A stretch of 49,811 nucleotides of DNA from a virus (taxonomy: Duplodnaviria; Heunggongvirae; Uroviricota; Caudoviricetes). The position numbers and the translations under genes were made by a program. The stretch is taken from the IMG/VR virus record IMGVR_UViG_2579779084_000010; one strand, 5' to 3'. The notes beneath the pieces are model-generated. The model was given only the letters and a program-made list of their open reading frames with translations. It was not told the DNA's origin and did no database searches. The stretch's first letter is position 1. Every line of letters starts with the position of its first letter. Below are positions 35,567 to 42,820 of this stretch, one piece after another.

Positions 35567-35782
35567 TTACTCTCCCCGTGCAGCCTTACGCTTGTCTTCT
35601 TTAATCTTGAAATAAAGGTTTGTCAGGTACGTCAGCAGGCCAAATACCAGGCTACCCAGCACACCTATTGCTGCCCACTGTGAGGGCGTGACTTTATCGA
35701 GCAGCTGTAAAAACCAGTAGCCAGCACTGCCTGCGGAGGTGCCGTAGGCAATGCCTGTTGAAATTTTGTCCATGGATTTCAT
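35567..35782 (-). CDS. Holin, phage 21 S-like pinholin with dual-start motif
   Basis: 71 aa from [26 protein letters not shown]...; two in-frame Mets three codons apart; two TM segments; strong SD GGAGGT upstream; basic C-terminus [11 protein letters not shown]. Confidence 0.8.
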
Positions 35783-36033
35783 AGCCTCACCTCCGCACGG
35801 AACGGATGGCATAGTTATTATGTGTAGGCTTCCAGACACATCAATCAGAGCCATAATTGATATATATGCTGGAGACGATGCAATATAAAAAGCTCGCCGT
35901 AGCGAGCTAATAAAATGTATTTCTCTGATATTATGTTTATTTGTATTAGCTCAGACTTGACATCACAGGTTTCGTATATAGAACATCATCAAATCTGTCA
36001 GTTTGCTATGAATGAGATATAGTAATTGAAGAG

Positions 36034-36429
36034 CTAACCTCGCATGTCAAAGCCAGATTTCTGAAAATCTCTGTAGACTTCCGGATTGTTGAAGGCCGGA
36101 AATTTGGCTTTATGAGCTGCGGACTTTATCGCTTCGCAATAGGCTTTATCACCGTTACTGGTAGATATTTTTAACGCCGTGCCATCCTGAGAGAATTCCA
36201 TATGCAACCTGCATTTTTTCCCTTTCCAGTTATGCGGCTCATCAAGTTTGGCATTAATTGCAGCTCTGATTCCCCGCGCTTGCGCCCCCCATTCATCCTG
36301 ATCATCCCAGCGTCCTGAACTGCAACTACCTGTAGCAGTAGTTTTGTGGCAATCTGAAGGGTGTAAAGGTGTGCATCCCGCAACAAAACCGACCCAAAAA
36401 GTCAACATGACGATTTTCTTTAATCCCAC
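36034..36429 (-). CDS. Lipoprotein with TolA C-terminal (domain III)-like fold, copy 1
   Basis: 131 aa; signal peptide with lipobox-like FVAGC; C-terminal GKKCRLHMEFSQDGTALKISTSNGDKAYCEAIKSAAHKAKFPAFNNPEVYRDF follows the TolA domain III pattern C-x-L-R ... G-D-x-x-x-C ... P-x-P ... VY..F. Confidence 0.6.
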   Translation of the reverse strand: MGLKKIVMLTFWVGFVAGCTPLHPSDCHKTTATGSCSSGRWDDQDEWGAQARGIRAAINAKLDEPHNWKGKKCRLHMEFSQDGTALKISTSNGDKAYCEAIKSAAHKAKFPAFNNPEVYRDFQKSGFDMRG

Positions 36430-36579
36430 TTCTTGCTCCTCAATCCATTAAAATCTCAGCAATAGTAGTTGTTACGTCCGCCACTGGCTCAGAGCTGACT
36501 ATCCGCTAAATTTAGCTCAGTGCCGTAGTTGTGTCAGAACAAACCTAAGCCGAAACCGTTTATTACAAAACAATAAATA

Positions 36580-37008
36580 TCAGGGTTTAAAATCCAGCAC
36601 CCCATTTTGAAATACTTTATATACTTCCGGCGAAGGGGGGGCAGGTATATCAGCATTCTTTATCGCATTCATCGCTTCACGACATAAATCGAGGTCTCCA
36701 CTTTCTCTTTTAACCTCCAGTAGAAGGCCATTCGGGGCCATATGCATTCTCAGTGTACACTCTTTTCCTGAATACTTACTCGCATCCCCGAACTGTTTTT
36801 CGATGGCGCTCTTGATTTGATGGGCATACAGACGGATATCCTCACTAACATCAGAAGTACGTTCAGATGAACTCACATACTGTGTCTCTATTGCTTTATC
36901 GGAGTAATATGATGTACGGTCATGATAATTTGTCGATACAGCATCAGTGCACCCGATAATAATCCCACTAATAATCAACGTAAGAATTGATGCGCTACGA
37001 AAACCCAT
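36580..37008 (-). CDS. Lipoprotein with TolA C-terminal (domain III)-like fold, copy 2
   Basis: 142 aa; lipobox IIGC; C-terminus GKECTLRMHMAPNGLLLEVKRESGDLDLCREAMNAIKNADIPAPPSPEVYKVFQNGVLDFKP closely parallels the C-terminus of E. coli TolA as I recall it. Confidence 0.6.
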   Translation of the reverse strand: MGFRSASILTLIISGIIIGCTDAVSTNYHDRTSYYSDKAIETQYVSSSERTSDVSEDIRLYAHQIKSAIEKQFGDASKYSGKECTLRMHMAPNGLLLEVKRESGDLDLCREAMNAIKNADIPAPPSPEVYKVFQNGVLDFKP

Positions 37009-37541
37009 TTTTCCTCACATATGTCATATAGTAAAGGATTATATATACCGTTGTTTTGGACGCTCAAACAGCGAATCAGATCAAATAAAACGCACATTTG
37101 TTAACATTTACACAAAGTCTGCGTGGGATATTCTGAAAGAATATCCATAATGTGGAGAGAATCTATTGAAGTGCATGGTGCCGGGTGCCTCCCGGTGAAT
37201 TCAGTACCAGCACCTGAATCCGCGATTATCCCATATACCTACTCGCTGATTGCCCCTCCGCACAGGGGGATTCACCATGCCAGTTTCTTTTAACAAACTC
37301 CCCGCAAACCAGACAACAGTCAACCGCCTGAATTGTGAAGTATTTAAAAATTTCTCCCGCTAACTGATACCCGGCTAACAGTCCGGCGTTTTCTTTTTCA
37401 GCAACGGGAAAGCAATAACCACCACACCCGCCACCAGCACACCGTCAGCCAGCACTGACATTATCCGGCTGCTGCAATGCCATTCACAAAAACAGTAAGC
37501 AATAACTTTTTACCGTAACAGGTGATAATCCAGATATGTAT

Positions 37542-37895
37542 CTACCCCAGATGAGTAATCCGAAGTTCATCCATACCACAGGTCCTGGCTATTCTGTTGT
37601 ACTCCTGAACAAGAGCAAATAATTCTGAATTAGCAACCATGAACTCATCGCAAACCCTCTGTATAGCATCACTATTCAGAATAATAACGTCTCTTCCCGA
37701 AAGACGATCAGGAGTACAAAACAAAACTGTCAAACGGCTGAAGGCCTTTGCTCGTGCTGCATTGACTATATCAATACGCTGCCTAAGGATGAAACACCCC
37801 GACGCCTCATCAATATTCACTCTACCCACACCATATGAATGATAAATATTTAATGCTGAAAAAACCATTAGACGGTATAACAAACACTCAATCAA
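37542..37895 (-). CDS. Hypothetical protein (cargo gene downstream of Q and tRNAs)
   Basis: 117 aa ORF in an AT-rich stretch; no recognisable motif. Confidence 0.3.
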   Translation of the reverse strand: MIECLLYRLMVFSALNIYHSYGVGRVNIDEASGCFILRQRIDIVNAARAKAFSRLTVLFCTPDRLSGRDVIILNSDAIQRVCDEFMVANSELFALVQEYNRIARTCGMDELRITHLG

Positions 37896-38005
37896 TACTT
37901 AACAGAACTTTTATTTTTGACAAACATATAATATTTTCAACAAGATCCTGAGCCAGGTATATTTCAGTATAAGGCTCTGCCGGAAGTAATCTGGAAGAAT
38001 GAATA

Positions 38006-38082
38006 TGGCGCGCTGTACTGGATTCGAACCAGTGACCGATTGCTTAGAAGGCAATTGCTCTGTCCGGCTGAGCTAACAACGC
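38006..38082 (-). tRNA. tRNA-Arg (anticodon UCU)
   Basis: Cloverleaf folded by hand: acceptor GCGTTGT/ACAGCGC, D-arm GCTC..GAGC, anticodon stem ATTGC/GCAAT with loop CTTCTAA, T-arm ACTGG-TTCGAAT-CCAGT, 3-prime GCCA. Confidence 0.8.
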
Positions 38083-38182
38083 TGAATACCGATAATGGAC
38101 CGCCATCGGGGACCCGCCCCCGCACCAACAACCCTGTTATCGCGTCGTCTGCTCTTCCTGATAAGCTAATGGCGGTTTGTGA

Positions 38183-38258
38183 TGGTGGCCCTTGCTGGAT
38201 TTGAACCAGCGACCTGGCGATTATGAGTCGCTCGCTCTCACCACTGAGCTAAAGGGCC
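38183..38258 (-). tRNA. tRNA with CAU anticodon (Ile2/lysidine-type by similarity to E. coli ileX, or Met)
   Basis: GGCCCTTTAGCTCAGTGGTGAGAGCGAGCGACTCATAATCGCCAGGTCGCTGGTTCAAATCCAGCAAGGGCCACCA on the minus strand; anticodon loop CTCATAA. Confidence 0.8.
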
Positions 38259-38295: not shown

Positions 38296-38320
38296 ATAAA
38301 AAACCCGCTCGGCGGCGGGT
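38296..38320 (-). terminator. tR-prime-like intrinsic terminator downstream of the late promoter
   Basis: Minus-strand AACCCGCCGCCGAGCGGGTTTTTTATTG: GC stem followed by a T7 run. Confidence 0.7.
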
Positions 38321-38368
38321 TGTAGAAACTCTTCTAACGTCAGGCATAAAAAGCCCATCGTTATGACG

Positions 38369-38401: not shown

Positions 38402-39223
38402 TTACCTAGTTACCTTTTTTAACTGCCGCTCAGCCCATGCTTCTTCAATATCAAACCGGGTCACCAGCGCATCATAGAATTTCTTAACTGTTTTTTCCCA
38501 TGACGCGCGTGTTATCTGGTTTGTCACCTCGCATATAGCATTAAATGCCTCCGTTGATGGTAGTCTTTCATAGCCACGACCACCACAACGCTGGCAGTCT
38601 CTGATAACAGGCATACCACGTTTTACCGACTCTTCACGGTGAATGGCGACACCACGCCCACGGCAATCCTTACAGGCGGTGGAAACCTCACCCTTTCCGC
38701 CACACTCCGGACAGGCAACTTTTACCACCTCCCTGACTTTTTTCCATTCTTCCCAGTAAGACGGATACACACCTTTCGTACACTTTGCCCATACCGGCGG
38801 CTTACCATCCGGATACTGGACCTTGTTTGTAAAAACTACGCTTTCAATAAATTTTTCCCCATAGCAACAAGGGCACTGCTTTTTACTCGCTGCGCTGCGG
38901 GCATAATCCTCAAAAGCGTACGAAGCCATAATGCGCATCACTACCGGTTTTATTTCTGCCGGAAGTTTTCTCAACGCCGCCACACGATCGCACCGACTGA
39001 GTGCATAATCTGCCAGTAATTCTGTTGCCCGCGCCCTGTCATTCATACTGATGCCCATTTTCCCCAGGAACGCAGAAAACCCCATCTCAGCCCGATTCTG
39101 TGTCATGCCCTGCGCGGCCATCACATCAGTGATACTCAGCGCATCTTTTGACGTTGAGGCCGATGCATCGGTCAGGCAAGGGGATTTTGGGGAGTAGTAT
39201 TTCGGTAAATCTTCCAGTTTCAT
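38402..39223 (-). CDS. Late gene antiterminator Q (Qin/phage-21-type, Cys-rich)
   Basis: 273 aa with multiple CxxC pairs (CPCC, CPECGGKG, CKDCRGRG, CQRCGGRG); position between rusA and pR-prime/lysis genes. Confidence 0.75.
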   Translation of the reverse strand: MKLEDLPKYYSPKSPCLTDASASTSKDALSITDVMAAQGMTQNRAEMGFSAFLGKMGISMNDRARATELLADYALSRCDRVAALRKLPAEIKPVVMRIMASYAFEDYARSAASKKQCPCCYGEKFIESVVFTNKVQYPDGKPPVWAKCTKGVYPSYWEEWKKVREVVKVACPECGGKGEVSTACKDCRGRGVAIHREESVKRGMPVIRDCQRCGGRGYERLPSTEAFNAICEVTNQITRASWEKTVKKFYDALVTRFDIEEAWAERQLKKVTR

Positions 39224-42175: not shown

Positions 42176-42820
42176 TTAACCACAGATGATATTGAAACGT
42201 TCTCCGGAAATCTTGACCATAATGTCAGACAGTTCGCTGACGGCATGGGCTTCAGATGATCCCAGAGCGTCAGGCTGAACAGCTATTACCGAAGCTCCAC
42301 TTGCCAGCCCTGCTTTTATACCCGCAGATGCATCCTCAAATACCACGCATTCACCAGGCTCAAGGCCCAAAGCCAAAGCTGCTTTGATGTAACCCTCGGG
42401 ACTTGGTTTTCCCGTCATTACATCTTCTGCACACACCATTACTCTGGGTAAGGGGAGATTAGCCGCTTTCATCCTGTTTTCGGCAAGCATTCTGCCTGCA
42501 GAAGTGACAAGTGCCCAGCTATCCGGTGGCAGTTTTGATAAGAGTGCAGCGGCCCCTTTTACTTCAGTAACGCCTTCTGTCGTGTTGATTTCAACCTCTT
42601 CGAGTGAGGCCGCGATTTTATTGGTTTTCTCACCTGCACCAATAAAATGCGTTAGTGTATCAATCGTTTGCCGCCCGTGTGCGTAAGCAATCACAGCCTG
42701 AGAATCAAGACCGTATTCTGCACAAAAATCTCTCCAGACGCTTTCCACTACGGCTGTTGAATCAACCAGCGTACCGTCCATATCGAATAAAAAACCCTTA
42801 GCGTTGAATATCATTGCCAT
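42176..42820 (-). CDS. HAD-superfamily hydrolase (subfamily IA phosphatase/phosphomutase-like)
   Basis: 214 aa; motif I FDMDGTLVDS (nucleophile Asp and Asp+2), motif II-like TSAG, motif III/IV K...EDASAG. Confidence 0.75.
   Translation of the reverse strand: MAMIFNAKGFLFDMDGTLVDSTAVVESVWRDFCAEYGLDSQAVIAYAHGRQTIDTLTHFIGAGEKTNKIAASLEEVEINTTEGVTEVKGAAALLSKLPPDSWALVTSAGRMLAENRMKAANLPLPRVMVCAEDVMTGKPSPEGYIKAALALGLEPGECVVFEDASAGIKAGLASGASVIAVQPDALGSSEAHAVSELSDIMVKISGERFNIICG

Follow-up and report, generated by a model that had tools for sequence, protein, structure and literature searches.

The window analysed here, a stretch of 49,811 nucleotides (nt) from an E. coli prophage, a virus of the class Caudoviricetes (IMG/VR record IMGVR_UViG_2579779084_000010), carries two neighbouring minus-strand genes between the phage antiterminator gene Q and the holin gene. 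Each encodes a small protein with a lipoprotein signal peptide and a C-terminal domain of the TolA domain III (TolAIII) type. The upstream gene, copy 2 (36580..37008, minus strand), starts with ATG and encodes 142 amino acids. The downstream gene, copy 1 (36034..36429, minus strand), starts with GTG and encodes 131 amino acids, and its TolAIII domain is diverged. Both open reading frames (ORFs) are present at the coordinates stated in an initial annotation (36034-37008 for the pair), and the C-terminal sequence which that annotation quoted for copy 2 is identical to the translation of the ORF.

Both proteins belong to the TolA C-terminal domain family, and both domains are genuine TolAIII by profile, by sequence and by predicted structure. 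Against the Pfam profile PF06519, the gathering cut-off of which is 25 bits, copy 2 scores 82.6 bits (2.4e-23) and copy 1 scores 54.6 bits (1.3e-14). In a phmmer search of PDB sequences, residues 55-142 of copy 2 align with residues 334-421 of E. coli TolA with an E-value of 5e-28, and 52 of the 88 residues of the domain (59%) are identical. The domain of copy 1, which spans approximately residues 41-131, matches E. coli TolA with an E-value of 5e-9 in the same search and shares 27 of 80 residues (34%). AlphaFold models have a predicted local distance difference test (pLDDT) value of about 90 across the TolAIII domain and low confidence in the first 40-52 residues. The best PDB match found by Foldseek is E. 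coli TolAIII in both cases: 2X9A_B for the copy 2 model, with a root-mean-square deviation (rmsd) of 0.6 Å and a template modelling (TM) score of 0.94, and 3QDP for the copy 1 model (rmsd 1.1 Å, TM 0.92). Both predicted models consist of a three-stranded sheet packed on helices, superposable on the solved TolAIII. Counterparts of TolA Cys363 and Cys388 align in both copies, and this cysteine pair is invariant in the family alignment. The likeness to TolA domain III noticed in the initial annotation is thus borne out by the profile, the phmmer identity and the superposition of the predicted folds. Copy 2 is also matched by Pfam TonB_2 (5.6e-5), the PHROGs match for the proteins is a family labelled unknown function, and no TolAIII-fold match was found in the BFVD library of viral structures.

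Neither copy is TolA proper. The NCBIfam models of full-length TolA are matched by either protein only over their final 80-100 positions. The scores against NF007065, 107.8 and 53.7 bits, are under the equivalog cut-off of 213 bits; against TIGR02794 (cut-off 59.45) copy 1 scores 47.2, below the cut-off, and copy 2 is the exception with 75.6, a score above it that is reached on the C-terminal stretch alone. The transmembrane anchor and the helical domain II of TolA are absent from both proteins, and both genes lie outside the tolQRA-tolB-pal cluster, in their position between phage Q and holin. Because a lipoprotein signal takes the place of the TolA anchor and domain II is missing, the domains cannot transduce force; they are TolA 'heads' that have no connection to the TolQR motor. 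In RefSeq, the Prokaryotic Genome Annotation Pipeline (PGAP) labels copy 2 a pseudogene, 'tolA, incomplete, missing N-terminus' (loci L004, 14681-14941, and L022, 9001-9261). The ORF flagged in this way is 142 amino acids long, has its signal peptide intact and is 100% identical to copy 2 of the window. The flag is an artefact, since copy 2 was compared with a model of full-length TolA.

The signal peptides were read from the sequence as a positively charged n-region, a hydrophobic h-region and a lipobox of the form [LVI][ASTVI][GAS]C, and all three elements are present in both ORFs, as the initial annotation had proposed. The N-terminus of copy 2 is MGFRSASILTLIISGIIIG directly followed by Cys20, the layout being MGFR, a hydrophobic stretch and IIG before the cysteine (lipobox IIGC). 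In copy 1 the initiator Met, encoded by GTG, is followed by GLKKIVMLTFWVGFVAG and Cys19, with MGLKK, a hydrophobic stretch and VAG before the cysteine (lipobox VAGC). The lipobox cysteine is invariant within each family. The GTG start of copy 1 is supported by a Shine-Dalgarno sequence, GAGGAG (36436..36441, minus strand), 6 nt upstream of it; PGAP places the start at an internal ATG, which shortens the protein to 124 amino acids and removes the charged n-region. In E. coli, an Asp at position +2 after the lipobox cysteine causes avoidance of the Lol system, and lipoproteins without it are sorted to the outer membrane. Both proteins have a Thr at +2, which predicts sorting to the outer membrane. 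The signal peptide and the domain are joined by linkers that are predicted to be disordered. The linker of copy 2 is rich in Ser, Thr and Tyr and has about 35 residues. That of copy 1, about 22 residues, contains Cys, Trp and acidic residues and is highly conserved; residues 20-48 (36286-36372 in the window) read TPLHPSDCHKTTATGSCSSGRWDDQDEWG, with two extra cysteines and a W-acidic-W motif.

The order of features on the minus strand is Q, a hairpin, two tRNAs, about 900 nt, copy 2, a spacer, copy 1, a terminator and the holin gene. The gene for Q (38402..39223, PF03589) and the tRNAs are separated by a terminator-like hairpin (38302-38321), possibly tR'. The tRNAs (38006-38258) are one with a CAT anticodon, which ARAGORN assigns to Met and RefSeq to Ile, and a tRNA-Arg(TCT). 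The gene for the P21-type holin S (35567..35854) is followed by those for a DUF1327 protein, lysozyme and Rz/Rz1; all of these features are on the minus strand. The tRNA pair shares 91.6% identity with ileZ-argO of phiP27, a phage that carries Shiga toxin (Stx) 2e, and in which stxA2e and stxB2e come directly after ileZ-argO and are followed by the holins. The tRNA block as a whole is 88-92% identical to that of more than 170 Stx-converting phages. The initial annotation had placed the pair at the position where Stx phages carry stx, and the arrangement in phiP27 confirms this. Another phage with a 99%-identical Q has different cargo between Q and holin.

The pair has several features of an independent unit. 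A sigma-70-like promoter sequence, TTGAGC and TATAAT separated by 18 nt (37038..37067, minus strand), with 10 of 12 matches to the consensus, lies about 30 nt upstream of the ATG of copy 2. The region as a whole is not richer in such sites than shuffled sequence, with ten found and 7.2 +/- 2.8 expected; in the 91%-identical allele of another prophage the -35 hexamer is retained and the -10 hexamer is TGTAAT. The two genes are probably co-transcribed because no terminator-like structure was found in the 150-nt spacer between them, the folding of which is no better than that of shuffled sequences (z = -0.44). Between copy 1 and the start of the holin gene there is a strong intrinsic terminator (35885..35908, minus strand; -13 kcal/mol, z = -3.3), in which a GC-rich stem of 7 bp, AGCUCGC/GCGAGCU, precedes the U-tract UUUUUAU. 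The GC content across the pair is 0.38-0.47, against about 0.50 in the flanking genes. With its promoter-like site, own terminator, low GC content and position in a slot for variable cargo, and with the cassette borders described below coinciding with the ORF ends, the pair has the apparent architecture of a moron. The stretch of about 1 kb from the tRNAs to copy 2 (37009-38005) holds no convincing gene, and RefSeq calls only a 29-residue DUF3927 peptide there. An ORF of 117 codons within it (37542-37895) was set aside as a part of the unit, having no Pfam or PADLOC match. In other prophages (L016-L018, 6561-6760) the segment 37164-37347 recurs on the 3' side of copy 2. About 3 kb past Q there is a gene for a HAD-family hydrolase (42176-42820, minus strand; PF13419, E 2e-22), which could be a further item of cargo or could already be outside the prophage.

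The two genes belong to two separate families. The initial annotation regarded them as a tandem pair of paralogues, and a local tandem duplication is ruled out by their identity of 27-28%, by their separate cassette borders and by the occurrence of each gene alone. The cassette of copy 2 (36579..37341, minus strand) comprises the ORF and 333 nt upstream and is shared, at 88.6%, with prophages that have copy 2 alone. The cassette of copy 1 (36031..36464, minus strand) comprises the ORF and about 35 nt upstream and is shared, at 82-87%, with pO157, IncK/Z plasmids and the chromosomes of Citrobacter and Serratia. The nucleotide homology of each cassette to the solitary loci stops at the ORF boundaries.

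Copy 2 is restricted to E. coli and Shigella. Other lambdoid prophages have it alone in the slot between Q and holin, as alleles of 91% and 66% identity, and one such solitary allele lies directly upstream of nanS-p. Copy 1 has orthologues of 84-88% identity that stand alone on pO157, on IncK/Z plasmids and on Citrobacter and Serratia chromosomes, and members of its family are present on about 600 plasmids, pO157 and conjugative plasmids of the I-complex among them; the family is mainly not phage-borne. The description of the genes as prophage lipoproteins is therefore too narrow. On pO157 the orthologue, with 88% amino acid identity, is located between hok and toxB. On the IncK/Z plasmids of the I-complex it is found 68 nt 3' of the relaxase gene nikB in the same orientation, again with 88% amino acid identity, and possibly belongs to the relaxase operon (coordinates of these plasmid orthologues: L003, 4815-5246; L011, 6965-7396; L012, 3555-3986). 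The solitary homologue in Serratia adjoins genes for GmrSD_N (DUF262) and HEPN-domain proteins (L008/L009, 5001-7736), a neighbourhood that looks like a defence island. Across genera, hundreds of clusters at 90% identity are found.

Of the 5,426 complete genomes of E. coli that were surveyed, 888 have copy 2 and 1,269 (23%) have copy 1 or its plasmid orthologue, with 525 places on plasmids. The pair at an identity of at least 99% occurs in about 780 of the genomes (about 14%), in surroundings that include a decayed Qin-like remnant, a Rac-like prophage and the full-length prophage of the window. The pair was compared at 80 IMG/VR loci, 77 of which have room for downstream genes. Copy 1 follows copy 2 in all 77, and a P21-type holin gene comes next in 76; the Q type of the window is present in only 33 of the 80. 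At one of the 77 loci the two genes, normally 154 nt apart, are separated by an insertion of 1.35 kb, which may be an insertion sequence. Among 50,697 phage genome records either gene is present in one, mEp460_ev081 (LR597641.1), which carries the pair and is 98.6-99.9% identical to the window from rusA/Q through the lysis genes. Judging by its name this phage may be a laboratory-evolved recombinant, which would imply that the module can be acquired from a resident prophage.

Both families are under purifying selection. In copy 1 the ratio of nonsynonymous to synonymous substitution rates (dN/dS) lies between 0.09 and 0.14, with dS reaching up to 0.89. The values for copy 2 are 0.26-0.39, and its changes cluster in the signal peptide and the linker. 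Two segments of copy 1 are invariant from E. coli to Serratia (dS of about 0.9): the C-terminal 40 residues and the linker, PLHPSxCHKTTAxGSCSSGRWDDQDEWG. Because of this invariance the linker is more than a spacer, and, more speculatively, the sequence SSGRWDDQDEWG may provide a second epitope for contact with TolB. The linker is faintly reminiscent of the TolB box of colicins, a similarity which the search of PDB sequences neither supports nor excludes: the motif is short, and phmmer gave a chance match only (E 1.6).

The ligand sites of TolAIII, the tip of TolA to which colicins and filamentous phages must bind in order to enter the cell, provide a further comparison. The edge of strand beta3 and helix alpha2 bind g3p, colicin N (ColN) and the N-terminus of TolB by strand addition, D418 and K420 make the backbone hydrogen bonds to all three, and the mutations D418P and K420P abolish all three contacts and result in the full tol phenotype (PMC4339652). 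Colicin A (ColA) binds at another site, which is made up of the beta2 strand 375-LLDIKP-380 and the lysines K368, K379 and K396 (PMC3365938). In copy 2 the beta3 region reads FQNGVLDFKP, compared to FKNAPLDFKP in TolA, so that L-D-F-K-P is retained; 11 of the 16 residues of alpha2 are identical; and the ColA strand is LLEVKR in place of LLDIKP, with K379 and K396 retained. The beta3 edge of copy 1, FQKSGFDM, is plausible, having the conserved Asp. Neither copy has a proline at the positions of D418 and K420.

Both proteins are part of a large class of lipoproteins with a stand-alone TolAIII domain. When 1.84 billion cluster representatives were searched with copy 2 by phmmer, 333 matches were obtained. 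Among the best 146 of these, 69 are 100-175 amino acids long; a lipobox is present in 44 of the 69, and others have Sec signal peptides. The two short relatives that were inspected are orphan chromosomal genes. A third family of lipoprotein TolAIII, with the lipobox LLLTAC and the C-terminus FKNAPLDFRP, is encoded on 10-kb ColRNAI plasmids of Klebsiella. There the gene has a 4-nt overlap with one that encodes a TonB C-terminal domain with a Sec signal (NZ_CP028788.2, 4908-5641), and the two adjoin an operon for a colicin-like tRNase, its immunity protein and a lysis protein. Many near-identical plasmids are among the matches listed by tblastn. A 'TolA protein' on a cloacin-like plasmid of Klebsiella has been mentioned in passing in the literature.

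We propose, with a probability of roughly 0.45, that the two lipoproteins would act as motor-less decoys which are tethered to the outer membrane and intercept Tol-dependent colicins and the pIII of filamentous phages. The bicistronic moron would give rise to periplasmic lipoproteins on the inner leaflet of the outer membrane, each displaying a TolAIII domain. The translocation domain of a group A colicin or related bacteriocin, or the N1 domain of pIII, would emerge just beneath the outer membrane, would meet the decoy ahead of the genuine TolA, and would bind it through the same surfaces of beta-strand addition that TolAIII uses. Because the decoy has no TolQR motor, the invader would not be drawn inward, import would stall and the lysogen would be protected. 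Copy 2 would serve as a close mimic of E. coli TolAIII. Copy 1, a more diverged module of broad host range, would display another conserved epitope in the linker and may have a different ligand, for which the N-terminus of TolB is a candidate.

The decoy idea had already been raised in the initial annotation; it is plausible, and the genomic context strengthens it. In its favour are also the TolAIII nature of both domains, the ligand sites kept in copy 2, the lipoprotein signal in place of the TolA anchor, the moron-like anatomy and the purifying selection. Both ORFs are intact in the decayed Qin-like prophage remnant, and the pair at an identity of at least 99% is shared by Qin-like, Rac-like and intact prophages, as fits a protective accessory gene. 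Carriage on several kinds of mobile elements, with GmrSD/HEPN neighbours in Serratia, on I-complex plasmids and on the bacteriocin plasmids of Klebsiella, also counts in favour of a decoy. The pili of I-complex plasmids are the receptor of phage If1, and the PDB entry that is the top fold match of copy 2, 2X9A, contains the g3p of If1 bound to TolAIII. Levengood-Freyermuth, Click and Webster reportedly found in 1993 that an artificial periplasmic TolAIII renders cells colicin-tolerant and leaky. Titration in the periplasm also has a mirror-image precedent in the colicin A resistance that pIII-N1 confers (PMC10424213). The homology to TolA is already visible to annotation pipelines, and the function is uncharacterised in the searchable full-text literature: no study of these proteins was found in it, nor, in agreement with the initial annotation, any characterised phage TolAIII decoy, the searchable part leaving out most subscription journals.

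Several observations weigh against a decoy function. Copy 1 lacks all three of the lysines that make cation-pi contacts with ColA (K368E, K379S, K396H) and the N-terminal half of alpha2, and is thus diverged at two of the three ligand sites. It is also nearly invariant across genera and does not track the TolA of each host. In copy 2, identity to TolA is 22 of 34 residues at the interface and 30 of 54 in the rest of the domain. The former is not clearly higher, so the retention of these sites could reflect descent, and selective retention is not claimed. O157:H7 strains are still sensitive to several Tol-dependent colicins (E1, E7 and K); as pO157 carries an orthologue of copy 1, this argues against a broad and strong tolerance conferred by copy 1. 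Competition for TolB is a further expected effect of such a decoy, with a possible fitness cost through Tol-Pal. The promoter-like site upstream of copy 2 is a consensus match only, and none of the PADLOC models of defence systems matches the pair.

The decoy reading can be extended, more tentatively, to other carriers. Both genes might be members of a large defence class of mobile elements, which could be called import-machinery decoys and would comprise motor-less heads of TolAIII and TonB; we regard this generalization as possible, with the balance somewhat against it. Such proteins, whether released into the periplasm or anchored to the outer membrane, would intercept bacteriocins and filamentous phages after receptor binding and before energised import. 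Their carriers would be prophages, pO157, bacteriocin plasmids and conjugative plasmids, in the last case shielding the pilus-bearing cell from filamentous phages specific for that pilus. The arrangement in Klebsiella, where a bacteriocin operon adjoins the motor-less heads of both import systems, is what would be expected of a strategy of import decoys.

An alternative is that the proteins modulate Tol-Pal. They would bind the N-terminus of TolB or Pal and partly uncouple TolA from TolB-Pal, which would loosen the outer membrane and cause vesiculation or leakage, and their expression by late read-through from Q would aid the release of phage or cargo. The beta3 edge that binds TolB is the same as that for g3p and ColN and is retained in both copies, and the full tol phenotype of the proline mutants in beta3 of TolA demonstrates how sensitive this contact is (PMC4339652). 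The genes are located in the late operon just upstream of the lysis cassette, in tight linkage to the P21-type holin, and the invariance of copy 1 across genera would suit a conserved host ligand such as TolB. The distribution of the genes, however, fits this explanation poorly. Copy 1 occurs on plasmids and chromosomal islands that have no lysis genes, a terminator separates the pair from the holin gene, and both genes are intact in a prophage remnant that is no longer able to lyse its host. The outer membrane is already served by a complete Rz/Rz1 spanin. A constitutive tol-like defect would be costly, yet the genes are kept by 14-23% of the complete E. coli genomes. Modulation of Tol-Pal, plausible for a burst of late expression, is held to be unlikely overall, and the aid to lysis that the initial annotation offered as an alternative to a decoy finds little support in the carriage of the genes and in the completeness of the spanin.

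In another explanation, the TolA/TonB-like fold would dock on the periplasmic face of an outer-membrane protein and inactivate it. Tailed phages or other import would then be blocked by strand addition at a TonB box or Tol box, and no invader would be titrated. Cor of phages phi80, N15 and HK022 and Llp of T5 are small phage-encoded outer-membrane lipoproteins that act from the periplasmic side in superinfection exclusion, inactivating FhuA against the phages that depend on it. The folds of TolAIII and of the TonB C-terminal domain are related, as is apparent from the TonB_2 match of copy 2 and from the TonB domains among the results of the fold search, and the conserved linker of copy 1 suggests a second specific contact. 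On the other hand, no result points to a candidate receptor, the likeness of copy 2 is specifically to TolAIII (59% identity) and not to TonB, and homology to Cor or Llp is lacking, the matches in Pfam and PHROGs being only TolA and the family of unknown function. This plugging of a receptor is considered quite improbable. Finally, the notion that the genes are non-functional relics, 3' fragments of tolA captured and carried passively in a recombination hot spot, draws on the RefSeq pseudogene label of copy 2, which stems from the comparison with full-length TolA, and is contradicted by selection (dN/dS 0.09-0.39) and by the acquired signal peptides, the ORFs being intact with their own starts, ribosome-binding sites and lipoboxes, the lipobox recurring in 44 of the 69 short relatives and the clusters across genera numbering in the hundreds, so that it merits almost no credence.

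If the decoy function is correct, exclusion would be achieved by mimicry of a periplasmic co-receptor and not by receptor masking or repressor immunity. The genes would constitute a transferable determinant of colicin tolerance, distinct from immunity proteins and from receptor loss, and would supply Tol-Pal research with natural, evolved competitors of the contacts of TolA with TolB, colicins and g3p. They are common in E. coli, including O157:H7 with its pO157, and could influence interventions based on colicins or filamentous phages, as the pair is present in about 14% and copy 1 or its orthologue in 23% of the complete genomes.

The closest relative among known proteins is domain III of E. 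coli TolA (1TOL, 3QDP/3QDR, 2X9A, 1S62), with which both copies share the Pfam domain, the predicted fold and the cysteine pair. They differ from TolA in lacking the transmembrane anchor, domain II and the tol operon, in having a lipoprotein signal and in being uncoupled from the motor driven by the proton-motive force. The artificial periplasmic TolAIII of 1993 is said to have relied on the same principle; that construct was soluble and overproduced, whereas the proteins described here are natural, predicted to be lipid-anchored and carried on mobile elements. Cor and Llp are unrelated to the pair in sequence and fold, and they inactivate FhuA and do not mimic a host protein. Stx and other cargo between Q and holin occupy the same slot, 3' of ileZ/argO-like tRNAs and 5' of the holin, and are subject to Q-dependent read-through; the TolAIII product is unrelated to the toxin, and the pair has its own promoter-like site and terminator. 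In Pseudomonas, a prophage defends its host with a mimic of FimU, a homologue of a host envelope component that incoming phages require; the mimic becomes part of the type IV pilus machinery and changes the receptor, unlike a motor-less decoy of a periplasmic co-receptor (PMC12952977). Periplasmic pIII-N1 confers resistance to colicin A and a 4-log drop in phage uptake, which was ascribed to sequestration of TolA (PMC10424213). The lipoproteins of the window would likewise titrate, in the periplasm, one partner of the contact of pIII or colicins with TolAIII. The two arrangements would be mirror images: with pIII-N1 the ligand of the invader occupies the receptor of the host, whereas a decoy would place a copied receptor on the ligand of the invader and leave the TolA of the host free.

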